Position numbers and translations under genes: made by a program
Shown: in pieces, positions 16,513-57,837 of the stretch
How positions within the stretch are numbered: the stretch's first letter is position 1
Layout: each line of letters starts with the position of its first letter
The notes under the pieces: model-generated
What the model saw: the letters and a program-made list of their open reading frames with translations, nothing else
What the model was told of the DNA's origin: nothing
Databases searched by the model: none
Sequence record: NC_070871.1
DNA length: 64,000 bases
Reading direction: 5' to 3' (one strand)
Origin: Escherichia phage PGN829.1

Positions 16513-16565
16513 CGCTTATTCTCCTAAATATTATTAATAACCAAAAGCTGCGGAGCAGCTATTAC

Positions 16566-20703: not shown

Positions 20704-20733
20704 TAAAAATAAAAGACTCCCCGAAGGGAGTCT
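20704..20733 (-). terminator. intrinsic terminator (minus strand)
   Basis: 8-bp stem AGACTCCC/GGGAGTCT with CGAA loop, then TTTATTTTTAAC on minus strand. Confidence 0.55.
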
Positions 20734-20742
20734 TATGGTTGA

Positions 20743-21126
20743 TTAGAAAGTCAGTTTACGAGCATATTTATTCTCGTCTGCTGGGATGTCAGCAGCCTCT
20801 GCTTTCACACGACGAAGTTGAACTTGCAGGTTAATGATACCTTCTTCACCTGGTTCCAGGTTCTGAGCATATTCGATTAACTGTTCCAGCAAGTCGTTCT
20901 GTGCACAACGCATAGCACGGAAGTCAGCATTGCTGCTATTAGTAGGCAGTGGTTCCTGAGTATCCAGCGGAATACCAGTAGGCAATGAGATGAATTTCTC
21001 ATCATCAGAGCCTTCATTAGCTACATAACCAATGTTCAGCCAGAACTGAGCTTTAGGCTTATCAGCCTTAGCAGTAGAAGTAGCAGCAGCGTTAGATTGA
21101 CCGAAAGTGAATTTTTGAATAGACAT
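20743..21126 (-). CDS. hypothetical protein (127 aa from internal ATG)
   Basis: ORF 20743-21219 trimmed to ATG at 21124-21126 (MSIQKFTFG...), which has a GGAG SD; the upstream in-frame start lacks an SD. Confidence 0.35.
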
Positions 21127-21233
21127 TTTGTACTCTCCAGATTTATGTGATTTACGGGTGAACTCGTCGGTGAGAACACCCAAACAAAAGGATAAAAGTT
21201 CAATGATTAGTGGATGCATTTACATCATCCATA

Positions 21234-21248
21234 AGACGCGGAGCGTCT
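21234..21248 (-). promoter_or_regulatory. candidate hairpin promoter of the N4 virion-RNAP type (6-bp stem, GGA loop) driving minus-strand transcription
   Basis: Plus strand reads AGACGC-GGA-GCGTCT; core GCGGAGC equals the core of the N4 P2 hairpin as I recall it; in a 127-nt intergenic gap upstream of the ATG at 21126. Confidence 0.35.
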
Positions 21249-21253
21249 GGTTT

Positions 21254-21472
21254 TTAAGGCTCAAAGCCAGGTTGTAATTGATAAGGTAATTCAACAACTT
21301 TCCAGTATCTATCGTGATATTCTGGAGTGGATTCGTTGATAGCATCTGCAACCTTTTGTGCAGCTTCTTCACTGTGAAAGTAAGGGAGATTCTCTACGAA
21401 TTTCTCGTCTGGATAATCCCCATCAAAGTTGTCTGTTTGTACGATTTTAAACTGAGGCATATCTATCTCCAA
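21254..21472 (-). CDS. hypothetical protein
   Basis: 72-aa acidic ORF. Confidence 0.3.
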   Translation of the reverse strand: MEIDMPQFKIVQTDNFDGDYPDEKFVENLPYFHSEEAAQKVADAINESTPEYHDRYWKVVELPYQLQPGFEP

Positions 21473-21510
21473 AGTAGATAGTTATCTACTTTTGATTGAC
21501 TATCTAATGT

Positions 21511-21538
21511 TTATAAAAGGAGACTCCGAAGAGCCTCC
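21511..21538 (-). terminator. intrinsic terminator (minus strand)
   Basis: Stem GGAGACTC/GAGCCTCC (one G-U) with CGAA loop, followed by CTTTTATAAAC on minus strand. Confidence 0.45.
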
Positions 21539-21546
21539 TAGGTGAC

Positions 21547-21870
21547 TTAGTCTTTAGTCAGGATGTCAATTACTTTGGAATATTCTGCGTTATAGATACG
21601 AGCGTTCTCTGAATCCTTGCAGAATTCTTCAATACTTTTCTTACGCAGAGTCTCAGTCATAGCTGTTTCCTCTGCCAGTTTATTAACAAAGGTATGCATT
21701 TCTAATTTAGTACGAATGGCTTGTTTCTCTGCCATAGTACTTACATATGAATTAAGCATACCTACTGCTTTAGTTGCTGTACCGAATGTATCTGCAACAG
21801 TAGTAGCAGCTGAGTTAACAGTACCAAGTAAAGTTCCTGCGGTCATACGTACAGTAGCGGTAGTAGTCAT
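21547..21870 (-). CDS. hypothetical protein
   Basis: 107-aa ORF. Confidence 0.3.
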   Translation of the reverse strand: MTTTATVRMTAGTLLGTVNSAATTVADTFGTATKAVGMLNSYVSTMAEKQAIRTKLEMHTFVNKLAEETAMTETLRKKSIEEFCKDSENARIYNAEYSKVIDILTKD

Positions 21871-22071
21871 GATGATAGCTCCAATAGTTGATGATAGGAC
21901 GACATGTCCATAACATGCGGAGCATGTGTAACGTGTAAGGTGGGGTAGGGTAGTGGCTACACCGTCAACATACCGGGGGGGCTAGTTGAGTGTAAGGGTG
22001 TAGCCCCAGCCACAACACTGCTGCTGTACATAGTTATGACCAAAATGGTATGCAAAAATATGATAGCTATC

Positions 22072-22410
22072 CTACTTATAAGCAGTTAAATAGGAGGGAG
22101 CTTTGTTTATGAAACGTATAGTCCTGAATGAGTTACCTTCCCTCACCACACTGGCTCTTATTTTTACGGGTAAGAAGATGTGGAAGTAGTCTCCTTCCGG
22201 AGCAAGGTAACAATCATGTTCGTTGAGGATAACTATCTCAGCATTACTGTTATTAAGCAGTTTATGCCCTTGGGCAAAGTTTGCTAACTCTCCAGGTTCC
22301 ATTATTAGAGTAGGATTACCATAGGGCATAACGTGGATGATTGCTTTCTCTGGTTCAGAGGAATAGTGCAGTAAGTCTGTACCATTCATGCCTAAGAGCT
22401 TAACGTTCAT
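22072..22410 (-). CDS. early-region paralog family member (divergent)
   Basis: 112 aa; weak version of the family motif (MEPGELANFAQGHKLLNN). Confidence 0.35.
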   Translation of the reverse strand: MNVKLLGMNGTDLLHYSSEPEKAIIHVMPYGNPTLIMEPGELANFAQGHKLLNNSNAEIVILNEHDCYLAPEGDYFHIFLPVKIRASVVREGNSFRTIRFINKAPSYLTAYK

Positions 22411-22714
22411 GCTTTAATACCTGTTCAAGAATGCTATCCATGTAATAACAGTATGCTTCACTGTTACTACTGTTTACAGGCATACCAATGTAATCAAATA
22501 CCCATAAGCAGAAGTGGTTTACTTCATGGATAAGTGTCGGTAAGGGTTCTGAAAAGATACCCATAAGAACCTTATTGCCGGAGTAAGAAGTGAAACCCTT
22601 ACAACCTTCTATGTCTGGTTCGTACCCTTTGAGCTTCTTGTACTTTTTTCGGAAGACTTCTCTGTCATTAACTATCTCCAGTTGTACTGGGTATGGGGAT
22701 GTGTTTATTTTCAT
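22400..22714 (-). CDS. hypothetical early protein with HExxH-like motif
   Basis: 104 aa; TLIHEVNHF; doubtful member of the neighbouring paralog family. Confidence 0.3.
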   Translation of the reverse strand: MKINTSPYPVQLEIVNDREVFRKKYKKLKGYEPDIEGCKGFTSYSGNKVLMGIFSEPLPTLIHEVNHFCLWVFDYIGMPVNSSNSEAYCYYMDSILEQVLKHER

Positions 22715-22995
22715 TGTCTTTCCTTATATACAGGGGTGTCATCCTCGAAGGATAGGATGTACTTATCTGTATTGAGGTGCCAAGGACTAAAGCTACCTTG
22801 CCAGGACATTGGTGTTCCTGGTTCTAGTAAATGTACTACTGAATTCTTATTGCATAAGAAAAGTAATCCTTGTAGTTCATGCAAGGACTGTTCGTCTGGA
22901 ACCAGGATAAGTACATCAGCATCTAGGTTATCTACATCTTTATGGAGAATGTAATCCTCCCCATTAGGTTCTGGATAAACTTTACTGATAACCAT
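22711..22995 (-). CDS. early-region paralog family member
   Basis: 94 aa; VLILVPDEQSLHELQGLLFLCN...LLEP. Confidence 0.4.
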   Translation of the reverse strand: MVISKVYPEPNGEDYILHKDVDNLDADVLILVPDEQSLHELQGLLFLCNKNSVVHLLEPGTPMSWQGSFSPWHLNTDKYILSFEDDTPVYKERQ

Positions 22996-23315
22996 TAGAG
23001 GCTCTCGTCGCTAGATAAATATGAGGTAGAAGGGTAGAGGGTAATAAGTCTACCGGTTAGGGTAGTTACTACCATAGGCTCATTCACAGATAGTATGTAC
23101 ACACTAGTGTGTTCTGGTACTTCCACGGAATCTTCTATCTTAATAAATTTGATAGGCTGCCCCAACATTAAGCAAGTACCAATGAACACTTCTGCTTCTT
23201 CACTTGGCTCATATAGGATGGTGGTAACTCTCTCCCTACCTGCCAGGATATTATCCAGCGTATATGGGGATAGATAGCAAGTAGTGGCAAAGCTAATAAG
23301 GCAGTACGGGTGCAT
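22995..23315 (-). CDS. early-region paralog family member (divergent)
   Basis: 106 aa; ILYEPSEEAEVFIGTCLMLG. Confidence 0.35.
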   Translation of the reverse strand: MHPYCLISFATTCYLSPYTLDNILAGRERVTTILYEPSEEAEVFIGTCLMLGQPIKFIKIEDSVEVPEHTSVYILSVNEPMVVTTLTGRLITLYPSTSYLSSDESL

Positions 23316-23318
23316 AAC

Positions 23319-23633
23319 TTATTTCCTTACATAGTAGTAACGGTATTCCTCATTCTCATAATGACTATCCCACTGGTACTCATCAGATACCATCATGAAT
23401 GGTAGAGCATCATGAGCACTACTAACAGCGTATACTGATGGAGGAATGATACATATAACCTTACGGTCACTACCTGCTAAGAATAACTGACCTCTTGCTT
23501 CATGGTAGTCCTCTAGAGTAGGAACCAGGATTACACGTTGTGAGCTACTGTTCATGACTTCTTCTAAAGTGAAGTCATTTGTATACAAAGATTCCCTTTC
23601 AGCATAACTGGGGACGGTCATTATGAATTTCAT
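23319..23633 (-). CDS. early-region paralog family member
   Basis: ORF 23319-23696 trimmed to ATG at 23631-23633 (GAAGGA SD); RVILVPTLEDYHEARGQLFLAG...IIPP. Confidence 0.4.
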   Translation of the reverse strand: MKFIMTVPSYAERESLYTNDFTLEEVMNSSSQRVILVPTLEDYHEARGQLFLAGSDRKVICIIPPSVYAVSSAHDALPFMMVSDEYQWDSHYENEEYRYYYVRK

Positions 23634-23997
23634 GATTGATTTTCCTTCCTTTGGGGATAGGTCTGAAGTAAATGGAAAGTGTTTTATTAAAGACATTATG
23701 GTCAGCTATCAATTCCCAACCAGGTATTTTATAGAACCTAACACCAGGGAAAATCATACTAAAGTCGCTGTAAAAGGAGAGGTCATACACCTTTGGTTCA
23801 GTGAGTATCTTAGTATTGAGTTTCAAGTTGGATAAGAAAAGAGAACCAATAACTTCGTGGGACTCTTCACAATCAGGAAAGAATACTGATTGCCACGGGG
23901 TAATGAACTTACTTACTATCTCTGGTTCCCCAAGGTAGTAAGGTTCTTGATTACGAAGTATTCCAGTAATATCAATATCAAAAGCGTAGATGCTCAT
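23599..23997 (-). CDS. early-region paralog family member
   Basis: 132 aa; AGGAGG SD 9 nt upstream; SVFFPDCEESHEVIGSLFLSN...ILTEP. Confidence 0.4.
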   Translation of the reverse strand: MSIYAFDIDITGILRNQEPYYLGEPEIVSKFITPWQSVFFPDCEESHEVIGSLFLSNLKLNTKILTEPKVYDLSFYSDFSMIFPGVRFYKIPGWELIADHNVFNKTLSIYFRPIPKGRKINHEIHNDRPQLC

Positions 23998-24197
23998 AAT
24001 TGCATACCTCCTGAAAAAGAAATGGGGTAGAGCCTCTCGACTCTACCCCTTACCGTTTTCAATCACGGGTCAGTTCATCACCCTAGATACATGTGTATCG
24101 TTAGCCTACTAGGTAGGAAAGGAGCCGGGTAACCCTGACTGTAGAAGTTATTAACTCTTTACGAGTACCGCCACTATCTACTAGGCGGCATGACTAA

Positions 24198-24488
24198 TCA
24201 CATCGTCACCATCATCCGAACACTGTCTTTTTCTCGTCTGACGGAGACACTATGAGGTAATTTTGTGAAGAACACAAGAGATGGAATAGACTTTTCTAAA
24301 GAGTAAGTTTCTCTTGGTTCTAAGATCTTAATGCCTGGACGATTTTCTAACAGCATCATCCCAGCTAATTCGTGGTAAGTATCCTCATCGTGGGTAATGA
24401 TGATATCACCTGATAGAAAGCCAACCTTGGTGTGGTCTAGCTCAGAGTATTTATCTTCAGAGTCTTGGACTCTCATATAGATTCTCAA
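24198..24488 (-). CDS. early-region paralog family member (first gene of the minus-strand early block)
   Basis: 96 aa; TTG start with AAGGAG SD 6 nt upstream; DIIITHDEDTYHELAGMMLLEN...ILEP. Confidence 0.4.
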   Translation of the reverse strand: MRIYMRVQDSEDKYSELDHTKVGFLSGDIIITHDEDTYHELAGMMLLENRPGIKILEPRETYSLEKSIPSLVFFTKLPHSVSVRREKDSVRMMVTM

Positions 24489-45429: not shown

Positions 45430-47390
45430 GTCAGATAACCTGGCGTAATGTTGATGCACCTAACTTTTCTGGAGTTGGTGACAGCATTCGCACATTTGGC
45501 AATATGATTGGTAACGCTACCTCCGGCTTAAGTGATGCACTGGGTAATTTCCAGAACGCTGCTAAGCAGGAGGCTGGCAATGCCGTCATGATGAATGCTA
45601 TGCAATACCAAGACCCTACTGAGTATCGTAATGCTTTGGCATCTGGTGCATTGTTCCAGGGGGTTGACCCTTCACTTGTAAGTCAACGCACTCTCCAGAA
45701 TCTGGATGAGCGAGCAGGTACTCTTCTGACTCAGCAAGGTCAGCAGGGAGCCAATGACTACAATGCTTATCGTTTTGGTCGTTTACAGGACACTGACTCT
45801 GCATTAGATAATGCATCCCCAGCTATTCGTTTATTGTCTGAGGCTTATCAGTCTGGTGACCAGAATCGTATTAATGCTGCACTGGGTCAGACACGAGAGG
45901 CATTATCGGCACTCCCTGCTGACCAACAGTTGGAGATGTTAGGACGTCTTCAAGGTCAAGGTGGTGCTGCTATTAACCAAGCACAAAACCGTTTTGATTT
46001 GGGTGTGGCTCAACGTAACGATGCGGATAGTCAGGCTGCTTTAGGTGTAATGTCACAAATTACCCGTGGTGCTGAGAACCCCAATGATGCTCGTTTGTTG
46101 GCAGAAGCATATAGTAAGAACCTTTCCCCTGTTGCACAGGCACGTTTACAGGAAATGCTTGCTCGTGCATACCCGGGTGTTTACGGCAATAATGTTGGTG
46201 CTACATCCGCTCCCGGTACTGCTGGTACTCGTCAGGGTTCTCCTTATGATGTTACTTATCAGTTTGCTGGTACATCTACCCCTATTACTCAAATGAGTAT
46301 TGGTGATGTAATTAAACATCAGGACGTTATGAAGACTAATCAGGGTGCTTCACCTGTTGGTGCATTCCAGATTAACCAAGCTACTCTGCAAGACTTTGCC
46401 CCCAAAGTTCTTGGTTCAGATTGGAAGAATCAGCCTCTTTCCCCTGAGAACCAGGAGAAGATTGGTAAGGCTATCTTCGAGGCTCGTAAGAACGGCAATC
46501 TTAAAGATACCTGGGCTGCTTTACCTAACTCTACCCCAGGTGCTTATAAGGATATGACTTGGGAACAGATTAAACCTGTTATTGCCCAAGCTGAAGTAGG
46601 GGCTGACCCATTTAATCTGACTCAGAATAGTCAAGGGAATCAGGCAGTATCTACCTTGGCTCAGGGTATGATTGGTACTCGCTCTATGCAGGATAATACC
46701 GGTAGTCTTAATACCGATTTCCTGGGTACTGTCACCGATAATACTCCAGTAGGTGAGATTGCTAATCGTCTGCTGGATGGTGACTTTAAGGGTGCTGACC
46801 GTAACTGGGTACTTAACAGATTAACTGATATTTCTCAACGTGGGAATATGTCACCAGCTATGGCTGCTGCTGTTATGCAACGTGCACAGACCGGTGTACC
46901 AGAAGGATACATTAGCCGTGCTATTGATGCGGTTAACCCATTCATTACTAATGAAGCCGGTAATGGTATGCGTCTTAATGACCGTCTGGTAGATCAGTTA
47001 ATTGAGGGTGTACAACGAGGTGAACCACTGGAAGGAAGTGTACGTAATCTTGGGCGTGCTCAAGCTATGCAGAACATTCAGGCAGCACAGACTGCTTATG
47101 ATGCTGCTGTAGCTGCACTGACAAATACCCAGAACAAGATTAACACTGGACAAACTGGACTTACTGCATTGTTACCTGCACGTCAGGAAGCTGTTACTAA
47201 AGCTGCTGCAATGCTTCAAGCTGCACAAGCCCAGGTACAAGCAGACCCAGCTAATCTGGCTCCAAGAGGTTTTCGGTCACAGGCTAGCGTGGACAGAGCA
47301 CGAGCCAAGGAAGATGAAGAACGTGCTGCACGTTACCTACGTCAGGCACAAGGTTTGCCTGAGTATATGCAACCAAGACAAAATCGGTAA
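45426..47390 (+). CDS. internal virion protein (N4 gp51-like by position, immediately upstream of vRNAP)
   Basis: Trimmed to ATG at 45426 (GGAGG SD); Ala/Gln-rich, likely co-injected protein. Confidence 0.4.
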   Translation: MSQITWRNVDAPNFSGVGDSIRTFGNMIGNATSGLSDALGNFQNAAKQEAGNAVMMNAMQYQDPTEYRNALASGALFQGVDPSLVSQRTLQNLDERAGTLLTQQGQQGANDYNAYRFGRLQDTDSALDNASPAIRLLSEAYQSGDQNRINAALGQTREALSALPADQQLEMLGRLQGQGGAAINQAQNRFDLGVAQRNDADSQAALGVMSQITRGAENPNDARLLAEAYSKNLSPVAQARLQEMLARAYPGVYGNNVGATSAPGTAGTRQGSPYDVTYQFAGTSTPITQMSIGDVIKHQDVMKTNQGASPVGAFQINQATLQDFAPKVLGSDWKNQPLSPENQEKIGKAIFEARKNGNLKDTWAALPNSTPGAYKDMTWEQIKPVIAQAEVGADPFNLTQNSQGNQAVSTLAQGMIGTRSMQDNTGSLNTDFLGTVTDNTPVGEIANRLLDGDFKGADRNWVLNRLTDISQRGNMSPAMAAAVMQRAQTGVPEGYISRAIDAVNPFITNEAGNGMRLNDRLVDQLIEGVQRGEPLEGSVRNLGRAQAMQNIQAAQTAYDAAVAALTNTQNKINTGQTGLTALLPARQEAVTKAAAMLQAAQAQVQADPANLAPRGFRSQASVDRARAKEDEERAARYLRQAQGLPEYMQPRQNR

Positions 47391-47466: not shown

Positions 47467-50400
47467 TTGAACAGGAAACATGCTATGTCAACATTTGACC
47501 GTCTGGCAGGTTTCGCAGACAGCATCACTAATGCTAAGCAAGTCGATGTCTCTACTGCAACCTCTCAGAAGCAAGCTGCACAAGGGCAAAGCCCTTTCCA
47601 ATTAACCCCAGAGAATGCTTACAATCTCCAAACTGGTCGTGTAGGTAATCTTGGAATTGGTGCATTCGAACCAGGTTCACTTCAGGCAGATTTCACTCAA
47701 GCCTCCCCATTAGAAATCCTTAATAAATACGGTAATGAGCAAGGTCTACAGATTATTAATAGCCGAGCTAATGCTGCTGATGTTGTACGTCAGGACTTAT
47801 CTAAACAACGTACTAACGCGGAAGCATTTGGTGATACTCTTTCTGGTGTTGGTCTTGGTGTTGCTAATACCCTTGGGGGCATTGCTGCTCTTGGTACAGG
47901 TCTGGTCAATGATAATGCCGGAGCATCCATTGCTTCCGGGATGGATTGGCTGAATGAAGGTGTACACAATTTACAGTCTGATGCACTGAATGCTACCCGT
48001 AAGGTTGTTCAGAATCAGAACCAGATTTCTGCACAAAAGAACCAGAAGCTCTATGAAGAAGATATTAAAAATGGGGAGAGCAGTTTGGTTGCCTCCCTGT
48101 CTCGCATTGGTCGTGATGCTTTTGATTCTGTTGCTAATACACTTGATAATGGTATGGCTGCTACCGATGGGCTGAGTGAAGGTGTTGGTTCTCTCTTTAC
48201 TGGTGGTCCATTAATTCGTGGTGTATCCGCACTCGGTAAAGTAATGGTAGGTGGAGATAAAGCCGTTAAAGGTATTACCCTAGCTGCTGAGTTAGGTTCA
48301 CGTCCTGCACAGATTGCATTGTCTGCTGGTCGTGTTGCTGCACCTGCTATTGCAATTGGTGGTATGGAAGCTGGTGGTGCATACCAGCAGACTGCTTCTG
48401 AAATCATGAAGATGTCCCATCAAGAATTGGCAAGTAAGTCTCCTGTTTATCAACAACATATCGCTGATGGTTTATCTCCTGATGAAGCACGTCGTCAAAC
48501 TGCATCTGAAACGGGTATCATTGCTGCTAGCTTAACTGCTCCAGTTGCTGCTGCTACTGGTCCACTGGTATCTAAGTTTGAACTTAACCCACTTAAGGTA
48601 GGTTCACTGGCTGGTGCTGGCTCTAACATGCTTCGTGAAACCGTAGAAGAAGGTATTCAGTCTGGTACAAGTCAGTTTGCACAGAACAAGGCAATTCAGG
48701 GTAATGTAGATGCTAAGCGTGATCTGCTTAAAGGTGTCGGTGAGCAAGCAGGTCTTGGTGCACTCTATGGCTTCGGTAGTGCTGGTGTTTCTCAGGCTCC
48801 TGGTGCAACTGTTAAAGCTGTTGGTGCTTCTGCTGGCCCTGCTCTTCGTACTACCCTGGCTGGTGCTTCTCTGGTTGGTAGTGCATTAGCAAAAGCTGCT
48901 TCTCCTATTACTAACATCCTGGTTCAACGTGGTGAAGAAGTTGCTAAGCGTAATGAACAAGCATCCCCTGTATCTGATGCCACTGTTAATGCTGCTGCAC
49001 AAGAAGCTACTGCTCAGGCAGAACAAGCACAAGCAACTGTACAGGAAGCAGTAGATGCAATGGATATTTCTCCTGAAGAGAAAGCTGCTGCTACTCAGTA
49101 TGCTGCTGACTTAACTCAGGCAATGAAGTTTGACCCAGTAGAGTTAGAGCAAGCTAATCCAGCAATCCGTGAAGCCGTTTCTGGTTCCACTAACCGTGTT
49201 GAAGCTATTCAGAAGATGGCTGACCTGGTTAATACTGCCGAAGACCCTAACGTTCAAATGGAAGCTGCAATCCAGATGTATGACAATATCATGTCTATGG
49301 ATAGCTTCATTAACCGTGACCCAGGTGCTCTGGCTAACCTGGAACAAGGTTCCCCTGCTGCTGCAATCGTTGACCAGTTCTCTGGTCTGATGGCTAACGT
49401 TCAGAATACACCTAAAGTACTTCGTGCATTCCGTGCTATTCATTCTATGATTCAGGAACAGGCTGAAGCAGGTAAACTGAAAGCTACTGAAGAAGCCAAC
49501 CAAGCCCAAGCAAACAATATTGCTATGGCTGCTGATATGTCTCCAGAAGTACTGGATGCTGATTCAGTGAACATGATTCTGAAACATGCAAGTGAAGGTA
49601 AGATTACACTGGGGAATCATCAGCGTGCTGCCCTGCAATCGGCTGCTGCCTTGTTACAGGGTGCACGAGAATTTGATGCTAAAGCAGAAGAACTAGGCTT
49701 ACGTCCTCAAGACATTGTTAGTAAACAGATTAAAACCGACGAGTCTCGTTCTAATGAAGGTCAGTACTCTGCGTTGCAACATGCTAAACGCATTCGTTCT
49801 GCGTACAACTCTGGTAATTTCGATTTGGCTTCCGCTTACCTCGACGACTTTATGAAGTTCGCCCAGCACATGCAGAATAAGGTCGGAGCGTTGAATGAGC
49901 ATCTGATTTCTGGGAATGCGGATAAGAATAAGTCTGTCCATTATCAGGCTCTTACTCCCTCCCGTGAATGGGTACGTAGTCGTACTGGTCTTGGTGTCAA
50001 TCCGTATGATACCAAGTCGGTTAAGTTTGCCCAGCAAGTAGGACTGGAGGCCAAAACCGTAGCTGATATTGCTAACGCACTTGCTACGGCTTACCCGGAG
50101 CTTAATGTTTCTCATGTGAAGGTTACTCCATTAGATTCACGTCTGGACAAGCCTGCTGCCCAGGTAGTTAAAGAGTTCCGTCAAGGTGGTCTTGATGCCA
50201 CTCAGTCTCAACAGACCAATGAACCAGTGAATCAGGTTGATGAAACTCCTGCACCAGCGCAAGAGACTACTACTACTGTACAGCCTAAAGCTAAACCAGT
50301 GGTAGAAAATAAGACTGTTCCTGTTAAAGAGGCTAGTTCAAAAGCAGAAGAAGTCTCTACTACTAAGTCTGAAACAGTAGATGCTACCCTCACCAATGAG

Positions 50401-53400
50401 GATACCACTCAAAAAGTAGCTGAAACTAAAACGGAAATGGAAACAGTTTTCCCTGTCTATAACAATGACAAGACACCGAACCAGTTCCTGAAATCATTTA
50501 CCCTGCCGGAAGAACCTAAGTCTCGCACCATTGGTTCTGAATCCCCTTTGACTGATATTAAGCAAGCACTGTCTTCTACTGCACGCTTTGAAGCATTCAC
50601 TCAAAAAGAAAATAACGCTCTCACAAGTGATGTGATTAAGCGTTATCAGGACTTAATGGGCTTTGGTGAAACTCTGAAGACTACTCTGTCTGATCGTCTG
50701 GCTAAGTTTCTTGCTAATAAGAACGTTGGTAAACGCTTTGCAGAAGGCACAGAGGCTAACCGTTGGGTAGGTGGTAAGTTACTTAATATCGTAGAGAAAG
50801 ACGGAGACACCTTTAAGTTCAATGACCAGTTGTTAGAGACTGCTGTACTTGCTGGTCTGCAATGGCGACTGACTGCTACACAGAATGCTGCTGTTAAAGA
50901 CATGAAAGATGTAGCTGCTATTACTGGTGTAGAGGCATCTCTGTTACCTGAAGGTATTCTGGCTGACTTCGAGAATGCTCAGACTCTGGTTGAAGCTACT
51001 AACTCACTGGCTCAAAAGATTGAATCTTACTGGGGTTTGAATCGCAATCCAAATGCACCACTGGGTTATACCAAAGGTATCCCAATGGCAATGGCTACGG
51101 AGATTCTGTCTTCTTTCATTGAGATGGGTGAAGTTAAAGAATCTATGCTGGATGTGTCTGAGTTTGACCCAGACTCTAATAAGACCGTCGGTCTGTATAC
51201 CATTGAGAAGCTGGATGATAACGATGCCATTAACAAGTTCCCTACTGCTATCGAGGAAGCTGTTCTCGTAGAACCAGAAGAGAAAATGTACTTTGGTGAT
51301 GATATTCCTTCCGTGGCTCAAACTCAGTTACGTAACCCTGCTGTTAAGAATACCCCAGAGCAGAAAGCTGCTCTTAAAGCAGAACAGGCTACCGAGTTCC
51401 GTGTACACATGCCGATGGTTAACTTCTATGAAGCATTAGGTCGTGACAACATTCTGGAACTGATGGGTGCTGGTACTCTTAATCCTGAACTGCTGAACGT
51501 GAACACTGCTAAGTCACTGGAGGGTAAAAACCTGTCAGTGTCTATGGCATATGATTCCCTGTTCGGTGTAATCAACCAGTTACAGGAACAGGAGAATGGT
51601 CTGGATACGCCTATTCACTATGGTTACAACATGACCCGTGTAGGTCGTATGCAGATGTTAGGTAAGAACAACCCACAATCCAGTAAACTGGTTCGTGAAG
51701 CAATTCTGCCAACCTTCTCTACTATTGACTTGAGTAATGAAAATAGCCAAACATTCTCTGACTTCCAGCTAGGACTGGCTCAGGCATTGGGTATCAAGGT
51801 ACATAACATGTCCCGTGAAGCTATGTCTGAAAAGTTGACCAAGGCTCTGGAAGGTAATCTGAAACCTGCCGTTGATATGGTGGTTGAGTTTGATAAGTCT
51901 GGTCACTTACCAGCTAATGCAGTGGATATTCTGAAAACATCTCTGGGCGGCGATAAATCATTCGTAGCTCTTATGGCTCTTATGGAATATGCCCGTTACC
52001 TGAACAGTGATGACCGTGCCAACTTTAATACCCCTCTGTACGTTGAAGCCGATGGTGTAACTAACGGACCAATCAACGCAATGGTATTAATGACCGGTGG
52101 TAAGTTCACTTCAGACTGGGTTAAGAATACTGCTAAAGGTGGCTTGTTCTTCGGTAAAGCTGGTAAGACTATGAATGAACATCGTTCACAGGATGACAGT
52201 GTTGACCTGTATGAAGCATCTACCAATGGTCTGCAACAAGCACTTAATGAGTTACGTACTACTTACCGTAACAACGTTCCGGTTATGAACCAAATGAATC
52301 ATCTTCAGAAGTTAATGGACCTGTTTATTAAAGACTTTAACCTGAATGAAGACGGTACTCTGGACCTGAAACGTGGTATCGCTAAAAACCCACTGACTAT
52401 TACCATCTATGGTTCTGGTGCTCGTGGTATTGCTGGCAAGATGGTTAGTGCAATTACTGACACCATCTATGAACGCTTCAGTGATGTTCTGCAAGCTCGT
52501 GCTGCTGACCCTAGCATTTCCCCAGCTATGGCAATGTTTGGTAAGGAGGCTGCGTCTGAGGCTGATGCTCAGGCTATGCTGGATACTTTCCTTACTTCTA
52601 TGGAAGCACTGACTGGTAATGTTCCAGTTATGCGTAAAGGTGAACTGTCTATTCAACAGGTAGAAGGTGCTCTGACTGGTAAGTTAGACCCTCAGAAGTT
52701 TACCGTATCAGGAAATGCTCTGAAGAACTTACAAGAGAACATGCTTCACCTGTTCGTTGAACCAATGCGTACTGGTATCCGTAATACTGTTGGTGAAGGT
52801 CTGATGCATTCTACTGAGAACTTGCAGAAGGCTACCCAGATTCAGTCACTGGTATTGCAGGATATGTTCCAGCAACGTGTCCAGGAGAAGCTAGCAGAAA
52901 AAGAAAAAGACCCAACATGGAAAAAGGGTGATTTCTTAACACAGAAAGAACTGAATGAAATCCAGGAATCATTATCCCCACTAGCTCCAATGATTGAGAC
53001 TGGTTCACAGACTTTCTACATTGCTGGCAGTGAAAATACTGATGTTGCTAACCAAGTTCTGGCTACCAACTTAGATGATCGTATGCGTGTGCCAATGAGC
53101 ATCTATGCTCCTTCACAGGCAGGTGTTGCAGGTATTCCTTTTATGACCATTGGTACTGGCGATGGCATGATGATGCAGACCCTTTCTACTATGAAAGGTG
53201 CTCCGAAGAATACCCTGAAAATCTTTGATGGTATGAACATTGGTATCAACAACATCACTGATGCAAGTCGTAAAGCTAATGAGGCTGTATACACTTCCTG
53301 GCAGGGTAACCCTATCAAGAATGTCTACGACTCCTTCTCTAAGTTCATGAAGAATGTAGACTTCAGCAAACTGTCTGATGAAACCAAACAGGCTATCGCT

Positions 53401-56400
53401 AAATCTGCTCTGGAATATGACCAGCGTGAAGGTGCTACCGATGACCTGTTACGTGTTGGTGCTGAACAGATTGAACGTAACCTGCGTAATATTGCTCTGG
53501 GTGTAGATATTCGTCACAAAGTAATGAACCAGGTACAGACTACTGTTGACCAGATGGCTGCTGTTGGTGCTCCTTATGTGAACAACGGTAAAATCTCTCT
53601 GGAAGGTCTGACCGTAGACCAACAAGTAGCTAAGCTAAATGAACTGTTCGATGCTGAATTAAACAAACGTCGTGATGCAGTACGTGCTGCTAAAGTAGAA
53701 CCAGTGAAAGAAGTGCCAGCAATGGAACAGGTTGGTCGTGTACTGAAGTCTGGTGTACGCCTACTGTCTAATACTGCTATCTCTAAGCTGGCTAAAGAGA
53801 TGTCTCCGGAACAGCAAGCAGTACTGAAAGAAGTACAGAAATCCCTTGCTGCTAAAGACTATAAGGTTGTTTACGGTACACCTTCCCAACTGGATGCTTA
53901 TGCTATTGAGAAGAATATTACTCGCCCAGCACCAGAAGATATTGAAGCTGCTGAAGCTGGTAATGCGTATGGTTGGACTAACTTTGAAGATAAGACCATC
54001 TACTTAGTTACCCCTTCCTTAGAGACTCTGGTTCATGAATTGGTGCATGCTTCTACTTTTGAATCTGTACTGGCTCACTATGAGGGTACTCCTAATGAAG
54101 CGGTCCAGAACATTGAAGACCTGATGAACCAGTTCCGTGCTCTGGATGTTAAGGATGAATCCCCGGCAGTTCGGGAAGCATATGCAGATGCTCTTAATAC
54201 TATTAACGGTCATTTATCTAATGGCTTTATTGAGCCAGCAATGGCTAAAGCTGCTGCACTGAATGAGTACATGGCATGGGGTTTAACCAACCGTGAACTG
54301 ATTAGTAAGCAGAAGAAAACCACTGCACTTAAGACTATGGTTCAGGCTGTATATGAAGCAATTAAACGTCTGGTATTCGGGCGTAAGAAAGCACCAGCTA
54401 ATGCAGATGATATGTTCTCTGGCTTACTGTTTAACTCGTCCGTAGTTATGCGTGGGCAAGCTCCTACTGCTGCTGTAGTCAAAGATACTACTCTGTTCCA
54501 TAACAAAACGTATGGTGACAATACTCGTCTGGAAGAGCTAGGGAAAACCTTCGATAAACTGATTACTGACTACATTGGTTCTGAACCAGTACAGCAAGTA
54601 ATTCGTAAAGGTAAGTTCTCTGATGCAGTGGTTAATGCGACTAAAGTAACTCGTGATGTTCAGGCTCATGGCTTCACTATGAATATGCAGGAACAACGTC
54701 TCTTTACTAACATTGTTGCTGCTCTGGCTACTGAGGCTGCTATTAATCCTGCTGCTCTGGCTCGTGCGCAGGAATACTACACACATGTTACTAAGAACCT
54801 GACCGTTGAGTCATTCATGACTGACCCAGATAGTACTAACCCTGCTGACCGTTACTATGCACAGCAGAAGTTCGATACCATCATGGGTGCTAACAACATT
54901 GAGTTTGATTCACAAGGTCGTTCCTCCTTACTGCCTACCTTTATTGGTCTGGCGATGGTAAGTGAAGAGGTACGTAAAGTGCTGGCTGATATTCCAGTTA
55001 TGAAAGTAGACAAGAAATCTGGCAATACCGCTGATGCAATGCTGACTAACATCGGTACTGCTGCAATGGCTAGTCTGAATGCTCGTGTAGCAGGAGATAC
55101 TAAAGCTACCAACGTACAGGAAGGTATGGATGCACTGGCTCAGACAATCATGCAGACCAGTCTTAATGCACAATCCTTCTATGATTCCGTTGCTACTCCT
55201 ACGGGTAATGCTATTGATCGTGCTAACCAGTATCTGGTGGACTCTATTGATGTACTGTCTACCCGTGCTTTAGAAGGTGCTCGTGAAGTTGCAGCTAATA
55301 CCAAGAACCCGTTGGTTAAAGGTGCTGCCCATGCTGCACAATTAATAGCTGCTATTGCTACAGAGAAGAATGGTGCAATCGTAGCCGAAGGTGTTATGGC
55401 TGCAATGAACCAAGGTAAAGTATGGCAACCCTTTCACGATCTGGTTAATGACTTAACTGGTCGTACTAAGAGTAATGCTTCTGTATATGATTTGATTAAG
55501 GCAGTGCGTGCCCAGGTACAGGCTGACCGTCAACAGTTCCGTGAACATCTGCCCACCACTATCGCATCTAAGTTCAGCCGTAAGCTGACTAATGATGAGT
55601 GGAAAGCAATGCATACCGGTATGGGTAAAACCGACTTAGCTGTTCTGCGTGACACTATGTCTCTGGCTGAAATTCGTGACCTGCTGACTGACCAGAAGAT
55701 TGTTGACCGTGAGGTTAATAAACTGGAAGCAGATTTGCAGAAACAAGCTGGTCGTAACTGGCCTTTGATTAACCGTAAATCTAAGCAACTGGCTCAGTAC
55801 ATGATTAATGGAACAGTTGGTAATAACCTGCTGCGTAATGCTACAGCAATCTCTCGTATGCTGGGTGAACGTCAGGCTGCACGTTCTACTGTAGACGTAG
55901 CTCAACTGGATAAACTGATTACTCTGTATGCACTGGAAGCAATGAGTAAAACTGACCGCGAGGTGTTATCTTCACTGGCTCAGACAGAGATTGAAGGCAT
56001 GGACTTCGCTACTTCTTATCTGGTTGGTCAGCGTAAAGATGAAATGGCTAAAGCCAAATCTGATACTCGTGCAACTCTGAACCAGTACAAAGGGTATATT
56101 CCTGGTGAGACTAAACAGGGTGTTAACTTGATAGTTGCTGAAGATAGTCAGTTTGCTGATTTGATTGAGAAGTCCTATGTACGTCTGGGTACTTATCAGG
56201 GTAGCTCTGCTAATCGTGGTCCAGCACGTAGCTACTACTTTGCACCGGTACAGGCACAGGCTCCATTCTCGCAAGGTATCTTACAGAACGTTCGCAATAC
56301 TGCTGGTGGTGTAGACCTTGGTACAGGCTTTACGATGGGTACAATGGTAGCTGGTCGTATCACTGACAAGCCTTCTGTAGACCGTATCACTAAAGCACTG

Positions 56401-57837
56401 GCTCGCGGTGAACGTGGTAATGAACCACTGCTGCCTGTATATGATGATAAAGGCAATGTGGTTGCTTATGAGCAATCTATTGACCCTAACATGCTGAAGC
56501 ACATTGAGGGTGAGAACCATCTCGCTCGTGCAATCGGTGTATGGCGTGGTCGTCAGGTAGAGGAAGCTAAGGCTCAGCGTTTCAACGATATGCTGATTGA
56601 GAACCTGCATAGCATGTATGAGAACGACATTAAGATGTCTACCTCTAATAAGTCACAGTACGTTAACCTTCTTGGTTCTAAACTGGATCCAGTAACTGCT
56701 GATGCTCTTAAACTGATGAACAGTGAAACTCGTCAGAAAGCAGAAAGTCTGTTTGGTGAAGGTGAACTGTGGGTACGTCGTGACATGCTGAATGATGCAC
56801 TGGGTTATCGTGCAGCTTCTGTAGGTGATGCCTGGTCTGGTAACTCTCGTTGGTCACCGGAAACATTGGATACCTTCAAGAAAGCTATGTTGGGTGTATT
56901 TGGCAACCGTGCTTACAAATATGTAATGGGTGGTGAGAATCTGGTTCAGAACTTAGTTAAAGAAGCCAAAACTCTGATTGTAGTTAAATCAGTAGTTGTG
57001 CCTGCTGTTAACTTCCTGGCTAACCTTTACCAGATGGTCGGTCGTGGTGTACCTGTTAAGAACATTACTAAGAGTATTCCACAGAAGACTGCTGAGATTA
57101 ATCAGTACCTGAAATCTCGTCTGCGTCAGGTAGATGCAGAAGCGGAATTACGTGCAGCTACTAACCCGAACCAGATTCGTAAACTTAAAGCTGAGATTCA
57201 GTCCATCACTGATAGCCATAAGCGTATGAGTATCTGGCCTCTGTTAGAAGCTGGTGAGTTTTCTTCAATTGCAGATGCTGGTATTGGTCGTGATGACATC
57301 CTGATTACTGAAGGTAAACTTCATGAATACATGGATAAGCTGGCTGATAAGTTACCTAAGTCTGTACGTAATGCTGGACGTTATGCACTTATCACCAAAG
57401 ATACTGCTCTGTTCCAGGGTATCCAGAAGACGGTTGAGTACTCTGACTTTATTGCTAAAGCAATCATCTATGATGATTTGACTCAGCGTAAAGGTAAGAC
57501 TCGTGAAGAAGCACTTGGACGTGTAACGGAAGAGTTCATTAACTATGACCGTCTGCCTGGTCGCTTCCGTGGGTATATGGAAAGTGTTGGTCTTATGTGG
57601 TTCTATAACTTTAAGATTCGTTCTGCAAAAATTGCAGTATCCATGATTCGTAACAACCCGGTACACGCAGCTATGGCTATGTTGGCTCCAACTCCTACCA
57701 TGTTTGGTAATGTTGGTTTACCTATTCAGGACAACATCTTCAGTATTGCTGCACAAGGCAATCTCGGTTACTCCTGGGGCTTCGGTCAGGGACTTCGTGC
57801 CCATAACCTTAACCCTTGGCTCAATCTAGCTAACTAA
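47467..57837 (+). CDS. virion-encapsidated RNA polymerase (vRNAP, N4 gp50-like giant protein)
   Basis: Single 3456-aa ORF (N4 vRNAP about 3500 aa); last gene of the late operon, converging on a bidirectional terminator. Confidence 0.9.
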   Translation: MNRKHAMSTFDRLAGFADSITNAKQVDVSTATSQKQAAQGQSPFQLTPENAYNLQTGRVGNLGIGAFEPGSLQADFTQASPLEILNKYGNEQGLQIINSRANAADVVRQDLSKQRTNAEAFGDTLSGVGLGVANTLGGIAALGTGLVNDNAGASIASGMDWLNEGVHNLQSDALNATRKVVQNQNQISAQKNQKLYEEDIKNGESSLVASLSRIGRDAFDSVANTLDNGMAATDGLSEGVGSLFTGGPLIRGVSALGKVMVGGDKAVKGITLAAELGSRPAQIALSAGRVAAPAIAIGGMEAGGAYQQTASEIMKMSHQELASKSPVYQQHIADGLSPDEARRQTASETGIIAASLTAPVAAATGPLVSKFELNPLKVGSLAGAGSNMLRETVEEGIQSGTSQFAQNKAIQGNVDAKRDLLKGVGEQAGLGALYGFGSAGVSQAPGATVKAVGASAGPALRTTLAGASLVGSALAKAASPITNILVQRGEEVAKRNEQASPVSDATVNAAAQEATAQAEQAQATVQEAVDAMDISPEEKAAATQYAADLTQAMKFDPVELEQANPAIREAVSGSTNRVEAIQKMADLVNTAEDPNVQMEAAIQMYDNIMSMDSFINRDPGALANLEQGSPAAAIVDQFSGLMANVQNTPKVLRAFRAIHSMIQEQAEAGKLKATEEANQAQANNIAMAADMSPEVLDADSVNMILKHASEGKITLGNHQRAALQSAAALLQGAREFDAKAEELGLRPQDIVSKQIKTDESRSNEGQYSALQHAKRIRSAYNSGNFDLASAYLDDFMKFAQHMQNKVGALNEHLISGNADKNKSVHYQALTPSREWVRSRTGLGVNPYDTKSVKFAQQVGLEAKTVADIANALATAYPELNVSHVKVTPLDSRLDKPAAQVVKEFRQGGLDATQSQQTNEPVNQVDETPAPAQETTTTVQPKAKPVVENKTVPVKEASSKAEEVSTTKSETVDATLTNEDTTQKVAETKTEMETVFPVYNNDKTPNQFLKSFTLPEEPKSRTIGSESPLTDIKQALSSTARFEAFTQKENNALTSDVIKRYQDLMGFGETLKTTLSDRLAKFLANKNVGKRFAEGTEANRWVGGKLLNIVEKDGDTFKFNDQLLETAVLAGLQWRLTATQNAAVKDMKDVAAITGVEASLLPEGILADFENAQTLVEATNSLAQKIESYWGLNRNPNAPLGYTKGIPMAMATEILSSFIEMGEVKESMLDVSEFDPDSNKTVGLYTIEKLDDNDAINKFPTAIEEAVLVEPEEKMYFGDDIPSVAQTQLRNPAVKNTPEQKAALKAEQATEFRVHMPMVNFYEALGRDNILELMGAGTLNPELLNVNTAKSLEGKNLSVSMAYDSLFGVINQLQEQENGLDTPIHYGYNMTRVGRMQMLGKNNPQSSKLVREAILPTFSTIDLSNENSQTFSDFQLGLAQALGIKVHNMSREAMSEKLTKALEGNLKPAVDMVVEFDKSGHLPANAVDILKTSLGGDKSFVALMALMEYARYLNSDDRANFNTPLYVEADGVTNGPINAMVLMTGGKFTSDWVKNTAKGGLFFGKAGKTMNEHRSQDDSVDLYEASTNGLQQALNELRTTYRNNVPVMNQMNHLQKLMDLFIKDFNLNEDGTLDLKRGIAKNPLTITIYGSGARGIAGKMVSAITDTIYERFSDVLQARAADPSISPAMAMFGKEAASEADAQAMLDTFLTSMEALTGNVPVMRKGELSIQQVEGALTGKLDPQKFTVSGNALKNLQENMLHLFVEPMRTGIRNTVGEGLMHSTENLQKATQIQSLVLQDMFQQRVQEKLAEKEKDPTWKKGDFLTQKELNEIQESLSPLAPMIETGSQTFYIAGSENTDVANQVLATNLDDRMRVPMSIYAPSQAGVAGIPFMTIGTGDGMMMQTLSTMKGAPKNTLKIFDGMNIGINNITDASRKANEAVYTSWQGNPIKNVYDSFSKFMKNVDFSKLSDETKQAIAKSALEYDQREGATDDLLRVGAEQIERNLRNIALGVDIRHKVMNQVQTTVDQMAAVGAPYVNNGKISLEGLTVDQQVAKLNELFDAELNKRRDAVRAAKVEPVKEVPAMEQVGRVLKSGVRLLSNTAISKLAKEMSPEQQAVLKEVQKSLAAKDYKVVYGTPSQLDAYAIEKNITRPAPEDIEAAEAGNAYGWTNFEDKTIYLVTPSLETLVHELVHASTFESVLAHYEGTPNEAVQNIEDLMNQFRALDVKDESPAVREAYADALNTINGHLSNGFIEPAMAKAAALNEYMAWGLTNRELISKQKKTTALKTMVQAVYEAIKRLVFGRKKAPANADDMFSGLLFNSSVVMRGQAPTAAVVKDTTLFHNKTYGDNTRLEELGKTFDKLITDYIGSEPVQQVIRKGKFSDAVVNATKVTRDVQAHGFTMNMQEQRLFTNIVAALATEAAINPAALARAQEYYTHVTKNLTVESFMTDPDSTNPADRYYAQQKFDTIMGANNIEFDSQGRSSLLPTFIGLAMVSEEVRKVLADIPVMKVDKKSGNTADAMLTNIGTAAMASLNARVAGDTKATNVQEGMDALAQTIMQTSLNAQSFYDSVATPTGNAIDRANQYLVDSIDVLSTRALEGAREVAANTKNPLVKGAAHAAQLIAAIATEKNGAIVAEGVMAAMNQGKVWQPFHDLVNDLTGRTKSNASVYDLIKAVRAQVQADRQQFREHLPTTIASKFSRKLTNDEWKAMHTGMGKTDLAVLRDTMSLAEIRDLLTDQKIVDREVNKLEADLQKQAGRNWPLINRKSKQLAQYMINGTVGNNLLRNATAISRMLGERQAARSTVDVAQLDKLITLYALEAMSKTDREVLSSLAQTEIEGMDFATSYLVGQRKDEMAKAKSDTRATLNQYKGYIPGETKQGVNLIVAEDSQFADLIEKSYVRLGTYQGSSANRGPARSYYFAPVQAQAPFSQGILQNVRNTAGGVDLGTGFTMGTMVAGRITDKPSVDRITKALARGERGNEPLLPVYDDKGNVVAYEQSIDPNMLKHIEGENHLARAIGVWRGRQVEEAKAQRFNDMLIENLHSMYENDIKMSTSNKSQYVNLLGSKLDPVTADALKLMNSETRQKAESLFGEGELWVRRDMLNDALGYRAASVGDAWSGNSRWSPETLDTFKKAMLGVFGNRAYKYVMGGENLVQNLVKEAKTLIVVKSVVVPAVNFLANLYQMVGRGVPVKNITKSIPQKTAEINQYLKSRLRQVDAEAELRAATNPNQIRKLKAEIQSITDSHKRMSIWPLLEAGEFSSIADAGIGRDDILITEGKLHEYMDKLADKLPKSVRNAGRYALITKDTALFQGIQKTVEYSDFIAKAIIYDDLTQRKGKTREEALGRVTEEFINYDRLPGRFRGYMESVGLMWFYNFKIRSAKIAVSMIRNNPVHAAMAMLAPTPTMFGNVGLPIQDNIFSIAAQGNLGYSWGFGQGLRAHNLNPWLNLAN

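Follow-up and report, generated by a model that had tools for sequence, protein, structure and literature searches.

The virion RNA polymerase (vRNAP) of bacteriophage N4 transcribes gp1, gp2 and gp15 according to the literature, and a hairpin promoter on the template strand precedes each of these genes:

N4 ~96, template strand: P1, TCCATAA-GTTGC-GAA-GCAAC, downstream gene gp1
N4 ~565, template strand: P2, CATCCAAAAGAAGC-GGA-GCTTCTT, downstream gene gp2
N4 ~4554, template strand: P3, ACCAAAAGCTGC-GGA-GCAGCT, downstream gene gp15

The promoter determinants used here were taken from a 2015 review and from structural papers of 2026. In the review, the N4 vRNAP promoter is described as a GC-rich heptamer centred at -11 with inverted repeats on both sides; a loop-closing G:C pair together with a 5' G and a 3' A in the loop is required for extrusion and stability, the polymerase reads -11A/G, -10G, -8G and +1C, and the start lies eight nucleotides downstream of -8. 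N4 P2 has been solved in co-crystal and cryo-EM structures with mini-vRNAP and full-length vRNAP, and the published P2 oligonucleotide contains CCAAAAGAAGCGGAGCTTC. The heptamer GCGGAGC is named as the N4 promoter mini-hairpin in a paper on the GCGNAGC class, in which the member with N = G has a reported Tm of 73 degrees C (Hirao and Kimoto). Homology has led to the prediction of hairpin promoters for numerous N4-like phages, including LUZ7/LIT1, Pectobacterium CB1-like phages and KP8, and those of the N4-like phage LUZ7 were confirmed as early promoters by ONT-cappable-seq mapping of transcription start sites. The putative P2 of Klebsiella phage KP8 is AAGACGCTCCGCGTCTTATGGA (non-template strand; Viruses 2019, PMC6950046, Table 1).

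The stretch of DNA analysed here (64,000 nt, hereafter the window) is that of an N4-like podovirus (Gamaleyavirus/G7C-type, Schitoviridae), the nearest deposited genomes being G7C/IME11/Bp4/ECBP1-type coliphages (Gamaleyavirus, Schitoviridae). Genes lie on the minus strand from ~24490 down to ~400 and on the plus strand from 24660 on. Positions ~21860-22011 align with the first ~150 nt of N4, placing the equivalent of the N4 left end at ~22011, and the minus-strand ORFs at 22072-24488 hold the place of the N4 right-end genes gp70-72. In the early region, a hairpin upstream of the gp2 homologue is very probably (roughly 0.9, judged from sequence) the counterpart of the N4 early promoter P2, used by the virion RNA polymerase, which is injected together with the phage DNA. 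Its parts and its gene are as follows:

21234..21248, plus strand (template): P2-orthologue promoter hairpin; 5' arm 21234-21239, loop GGA 21240-21242, 3' arm 21243-21248
21238..21244, plus strand: heptamer GCGGAGC centred at -11 (-8G, -9C, -10G, -11G, -12A, -13G, -14C)
21230, minus strand: predicted P2 transcription start (+1; template C, RNA G), from the N4 rule applied to the sequence, leftward
20743..21126, minus strand: 127-aa homologue of gp2, with 71% identity to N4 gp2 counted from residue 34 of the latter

The hairpin reads AGACGC-GGA-GCGTCT on the plus strand, with a perfect 6-bp stem and a GGA loop, and is followed by GGTTTTTAAGG. It lies in a gap of 127 nt that is bounded by the stop codon (21254-21256) of a small ORF on the minus strand and by the start of the gp2 homologue at 21126, which has the RBS GGAGAG. 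All the published determinants are found at this site. A stem within the range of 5-7 bp and a 3-nt loop are on the strand that serves as template for the minus-strand early genes; the GC-rich heptamer at -11 has a C:G closing pair and a loop with 5' G and 3' A, and is identical to the heptamers of N4 P2 and P3; and the bases recognised by vRNAP are present as a purine at -11 (21241 G, followed by 21242 A at -12), -10G (21240), -8G (21238) and +1C (21230). The site is near the left end, upstream of the early gene gp2. By the N4 rule (8 nt downstream of -8, +1 = C), transcription would start at 21230, where template +2 (21229) is also C, and the hairpin would span -4 to -18 relative to this start. 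The earlier note on this DNA had given the same sequence, coordinates and gap, the same template-strand orientation and the same reading as an early promoter, and in all of these it is borne out, the last by colinearity with N4 P2 and by the full set of determinants. The note placed the start about 10-12 nt downstream of the hairpin; the predicted start is 11 nt from the loop centre and only 4 nt past the stem base.

Nearest-neighbour DNA folding of the hairpin gives -5.6 kcal/mol (z = -2.8). Generic nearest-neighbour parameters are not known to account for the extra stability of GNA mini-hairpins, and for that reason these energies add little. The window heptamer belongs to the GCGNAGC mini-hairpins of Hirao and Kimoto, and because of this the GGA-loop (template) strand, not the TCC-loop strand, is expected to be the stable and recognised one. 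The class is a structural one and not a functional family, and the copy in the window is embedded in a longer stem and combined with a polymerase start site.

Window positions 21100-21290 are colinear with the N4 P2 region, running from the gp2 RBS/ATG block through TGGATGCAT..CATCCA to the hairpin. The two sites share their position upstream of gp2 and after gp1 and the gp1 terminator, the template-strand orientation, GCGGAGC with its GGA loop, CC at +1/+2, the TGGATGCAT..CATCCA flank and the 11 nt from loop centre to +1. The core GCGGAGC, which the earlier note had given for N4 P2, is the same in the N4 genome, the published P2 oligonucleotide and the mini-hairpin paper. The window differs from N4 P2 in its stem, AGACGC with 6 bp where N4 has AAGAAGC with 7 bp, in pair -7/-15, where C:G replaces A:T as a compensatory change, and in a spacer ATAA (21231-21234) where N4 P2 has the AAAA 'ruler', although ATAA is also the spacer of N4 P1. 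A further difference is an insert of ~215 bp with a 68-aa ORF immediately upstream of the hairpin; thus, P2 is ~780 nt from the presumed left end (~22011) in the window but ~575 nt from it in N4.

The putative P2 of KP8 (AAGACGCTCCGCGTCTTATGGA, PMC6950046) matches the window sequence CAGACGCTCCGCGTCTTATGGA at 21 of 22 positions, including the whole 6-bp hairpin and the start region. However, the AGACGC hairpin precedes ORF4 in KP8 and directly precedes gp2 in the window (both homology predictions). The ORF that directly follows KP8 P3, ORF5, is taken to be the gp2-like gene, judged from related loci, and is preceded by a GGCTGC hairpin of its own. KP8 has four putative promoters, compared with three in the window. 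Four hairpin promoters are also seen in several related loci (L007, L008, L010, L011 and L015), where, as in KP8, the extra fourth promoter, whose stem is AGACGC or AGAAGC, serves a further small ORF that is located between gp1 and gp2. In the four-promoter relatives gp2 itself has a GGCTGC or AGCTGC hairpin, whereas the window gp2 has AGACGC, which suggests that promoter-plus-ORF modules have been gained, lost or swapped via recombination at the conserved heptamer.

The sites N4 P1 and P3 and those of LUZ7/LIT1 and CB1-like phages resemble the window site in their stems of 4-7 bp, their loops of 3 nt and their start at a G ~11-14 nt away from the centre of the loop. Distant relatives have GTA, GCA, GAA or TAA loops and stems other than that of the window. 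In the distant loci (L019-L030) the loop is G-N-A with T, C or A at its centre (GTA, GCA, GAA), or TAA. The 'central purine' rule is thus not universal across Schitoviridae, since these loop centres include T and C; presumably, the base at the loop centre changes together with the -11 recognition pocket of the vRNAP concerned.

Hairpins of the generic type are common in the window: counting perfect stems of 5 bp or more that are closed by a 3-nt loop, there are 118, about one per 540 nt. GGA loops occur in three of the 118, and these are exactly the three GCGGAGC sites of the window, all of them on the plus strand, with 6-bp stems and, by inspection, CC at +1/+2. GCGGAGC hairpins with stems of at least 5 bp are expected at a mean of 0.04 against the three observed, a number reached in none of 2000 dinucleotide-preserving shuffles. 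The two sister sites and their genes are as follows:

21913..21927, plus strand: P1-orthologue hairpin ACATGC-GGA-GCATGT, predicted +1 at 21909, aligns with N4 P1
21547-21870, minus strand: gp1 homologue, 66% identical to N4 gp1
16546..16560, plus strand: P3-orthologue hairpin AGCTGC-GGA-GCAGCT, predicted +1 at 16542, the same 6-bp hairpin as N4 P3
15694-16512, minus strand: RNAPII small-subunit (gp15) homologue, 65% identical to N4 gp15

The P1 orthologue sits upstream of the gp1 homologue, ~90-100 nt from the N4-left-end equivalent (~22011), and differs from N4 P1, which has a GAA loop and a 5-bp stem, in its GGA loop and 6-bp stem. The predicted +1 of the P3 orthologue is 30 nt upstream of the gp15 homologue, and its 6-bp hairpin is shared with N4 P3, although the N4 stem is one pair longer. 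When both strands were scanned under relaxed settings (minimum stem 4 bp, seven determinants scored, with a '+1C' flag that actually scored +2), no further promoter with the full determinant set was found in the window. The two other top scores, at 45564 and 53632 on the plus strand, were rejected: their stems are of 4 bp with TAA loops, and both are located within plus-strand late genes, on the non-template strand. The scan of the whole sequence for hairpins, proposed in the earlier note as a check, thus keeps the P2 site but adds the sister sites at 21913-21927 and 16546-16560, which the note had missed. Its second candidate, CCTAC-TAG-GTAGG at 24105-24117, is one of the 118 generic hairpins and does not hold up as a promoter: in its heptamer, ACTAGGT, position -8 is A, -10 is T and -12 is G, and a T stands at the predicted +1 of the template. 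No counterpart of it is found in the homologous N4 gp70-gp71 gap or in the 38 fetched loci, and a strong minus-strand terminator (24049-24024) stands between it and the next gene. Just past the stop codon of the nearby gp70-like ORF (24198-24488) there is a GC-rich stem-loop, CCGCC..GGCGG (24170-24190, minus strand), with no T-run after it. Its N4 equivalent, CCCGCC..GGCGGG at ~69370-69395, is likewise downstream of the gp70-like gene, and this conserved stem-loop may be an RNA structure.

To follow the site across relatives, loci were fetched by gp2 protein only, and the upstream sequence was then inspected. Nearly all have a 3-nt-loop hairpin at the same offset, with differing stems (AGACGC, GGCTGC, AGCTGC, AAGAAGC, GCCGC, ACCTGC, AGCGGC, GGGCC, CACGCC and others). 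Of the 51 unique canonical sites counted over the window, N4 and related loci, 50 are template-strand sites. Covariation was analysed in an alignment of the window with 15 closer relatives (16 genomes), anchored on the gp2 start codon and not on the hairpin. The heptamer GCGGAGC is invariant (16/16), although the gp2 proteins of these genomes share only 71-99% identity with that of the window. The five inner stem pairs are paired in every genome, and two of them change on both sides: pair -6/-16 is A:T in 12 and C:G in four genomes, and pair -7/-15 is C:G in 11, T:A in four and A:T in one, with neither unpaired in any. Thus, the bases of the stem vary while the pairing persists. Slid registers are only 29-46% paired, and the observed covariation was reached in none of 500 shuffles.

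N4 gp2 is an early protein and a cofactor of RNAPII. The predicted P2 leader before its homologue in the window is 104 nt long, and terminator-like elements are seen on both sides of the unit:

20713..20734, minus strand: intrinsic-terminator-like hairpin and T-run, just past the gp2 stop codon
21519..21538, minus strand: terminator-like hairpin GGAGGCTC-TTCG-GAGTCTCC followed by TTTTAT, downstream of gp1, identified by inspection and homology

The first of these would close a P2-gp2 transcription unit of ~500 nt. The second has its homologue in the N4 sequence that directly follows gp1 and is not among the terminator-scan matches; it is a putative separator of the P1 unit from the P2 unit. 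In the N4 record (EF056009), the gp2 CDS is 586-1071, an annotated start that is ~11-12 nt downstream of the P2 start and lacks an RBS. The corresponding ATG in the window (21219, equal to N4 586) was rejected as the gp2 start, as homology begins only at N4 residue 34. An RBS-plus-ATG block, CATTTTGTACTCTCCAGAT, is identical in 16 of 16 genomes at the position of window 21126. These comparisons point to the internal Met34 as the real gp2 start (N4 685; window 21126).

Between the gp1 terminator and the P2 hairpin, the window carries a 68-aa minus-strand ORF (21254-21460; phrog_19873, RBS GGAG, ATG at 21460), where N4 has only ~40 nt. The whole stretch 21100-21560 is covered by no deposited phage record among the matching records listed, and from these comparisons the slot upstream of P2 appears to be a place where small ORFs are variably inserted. 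This ORF was not found to have a hairpin promoter and would therefore depend on P1 read-through. In the interval from the gp1 terminator to the RBS of this small ORF, the window also contains a perfect 8-bp inverted repeat, AGTAGATA-GT-TATCTACT (21473-21490); the counterpart of this place in N4, just upstream of P2, is occupied by another inverted repeat, GATAGTT-ATTG-AACTATC.

The hairpin starts 5 nt past the stop codon of this small ORF, and as an inverted repeat it would fold in minus-strand RNA too, so a role at the RNA level has to be weighed, namely that of a stem-loop at the 3' end of ORF 21254-21460 in P1 read-through transcripts (as a stabiliser, processing site or weak terminator). 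On the minus strand, the terminator scan also rates the P3 hairpin, with TTTGGTTATT after it, as terminator-like, and a secondary terminator role is conceivable for some promoter hairpins. However, the RNA tail at the window site, UUAUGGAUG, is not U-rich. The upstream ORF is variable and absent from N4 and most relatives, whereas the hairpin stays at a fixed distance from gp2, and the conserved bases (GGA loop, -8G, +1C) are contacts of a DNA-reading polymerase on the template. A UCC loop in RNA is not known to have any special property. An RNA-level role is therefore very improbable as the main function of the hairpin, though conceivable as a side effect. The AAAA spacer of P2- and P3-type promoters gives a U-run after the hairpin in read-through RNA, and some promoter hairpins might also attenuate transcripts from upstream.

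Slightly less probable again is a Rho-independent terminator of plus-strand transcripts, which would stop antisense transcription into the early region from the left. A consensus scan scores plus-strand 21234-21248 as terminator-like, with the tail GGTTTTTAAG (hairpin, then GGTTTTT), and 11 of the 16 aligned genomes have a short T-run after it. In several relatives (L002, L004, L005), however, the T-run is missing while the heptamer and stem are invariant or covarying, and the sister P1 and P3 sites have no plus-strand T-run. There is no credible plus-strand gene to the left, where coding is on the minus strand down to ~400, and a terminator has no need of an invariant GGA loop, of -8G or of CC at a fixed distance on the other side. 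Least credible of all is a chance palindrome or a decayed, inactive promoter relic: generic hairpins of 5-6 bp with a 3-nt loop abound (118 in the window), but chance accounts for neither the number of GCGGAGC hairpins (three against 0.04, in 0/2000 shuffles) nor the pairing maintained by compensatory changes, and all determinants are intact, with a heptamer that is invariant despite the divergence of gp2 (71-99% identity).

For the hairpin as the P2 counterpart, the enzyme that would read it is also encoded in the window:

47467..57837, plus strand: gene of the virion RNA polymerase (3456 aa); identity to N4 vRNAP is 67%, rising to 70% over the mini-vRNAP domain

This protein, the cognate enzyme, has the promoter-reading elements (-11 recognition site, specificity loop). 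Residues are numbered here with an offset of 997 (mini-vRNAP being residues 998-2103 of the full protein), and the named residues were verified in the N4 sequence. The hairpin-reading residues K114, R119, W129, D901 and R904 are kept, as are the backbone contacts K849, K850 and K268, all with identical local context. As a counter-point to the P2 reading, K267, which in N4 is one of two intercalating-hairpin lysines that melt the base of the 7-bp stem, is N in the window.

By analogy with the mechanism established for N4, the left genome end would enter the cell and gyrase-driven negative supercoiling would extrude the inverted repeat as a cruciform. The template-strand GCGGAGC mini-hairpin, with a sheared G:A pair in its GGA loop, would survive SSB, while the TCC-loop arm would be melted; the dependence of P2 on gyrase and SSB is carried over from N4. 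Transcription would then begin at the template C 8 nt downstream of -8 (21230) and proceed leftward, and the product would be a short mRNA for the homologue of gp2 (the RNAPII cofactor in N4), ending at the terminator 20734-20713. Together with the P1 and P3 orthologues (gp1; RNAPII subunits gp15/gp16), P2 would launch the early-to-middle transcription switch.

The beginning of the predicted P2 transcript contains a further inverted repeat:

21212..21230, minus strand: inverted repeat in the initially transcribed region, RNA 5'-GGAUGAUGUAAAUGCAUCC, with a stem-loop that would start exactly at +1

In this transcript the stem is GGAUG..CAUCC (+1..+19, 21212-21230), and the predicted P1 transcript has a stem GGAC..GUCC (+1..+13, 21897-21909). 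In N4 (L001) the corresponding 5' stem-loops are at ~84-96 and ~536-554, and the feature is also seen across the related loci (L002-L036). Distant Schitoviridae keep the position of the +1 stem with other sequences (GGAUUC/GAAUCC, GGGUA/UGCCC, GGGGA/UCCCC, GGCUGCU/AGUAGCC), and P3-type sites lack the stem-loop. A paired +1 and a dG of -4.5 kcal/mol or lower within 24 nt are found in 25 of the 44 unique 5' ends predicted and in 18% of control 24-mers that start with GG, although the 44 ends come from related sequences and these counts are not independent. A literature search with literal terms for a +1 stem-loop of vRNAP transcripts returned nothing relevant. That the +1 stem-loop is a conserved functional element of vRNAP early transcripts is a tentative proposal, and a somewhat doubtful one; if true, it could protect the 5' end from degradation or peel the nascent RNA off the single-stranded template.

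The P2 element is already known in kind and in sequence (textbook N4; the putative P2 of KP8), is ordinary for N4-like phages, and opens no new question. Among the matching phage records listed, none has a promoter annotation at the P2 site. The analysis provides a base-precise annotation of the early transcription units of a Gamaleyavirus-type phage, with predicted +1 positions at 21909, 21230 and 16542. The compensatory changes in the stem, the invariant heptamer and the conserved reader residues give independent evolutionary support to the recognition rules established biochemically for N4.
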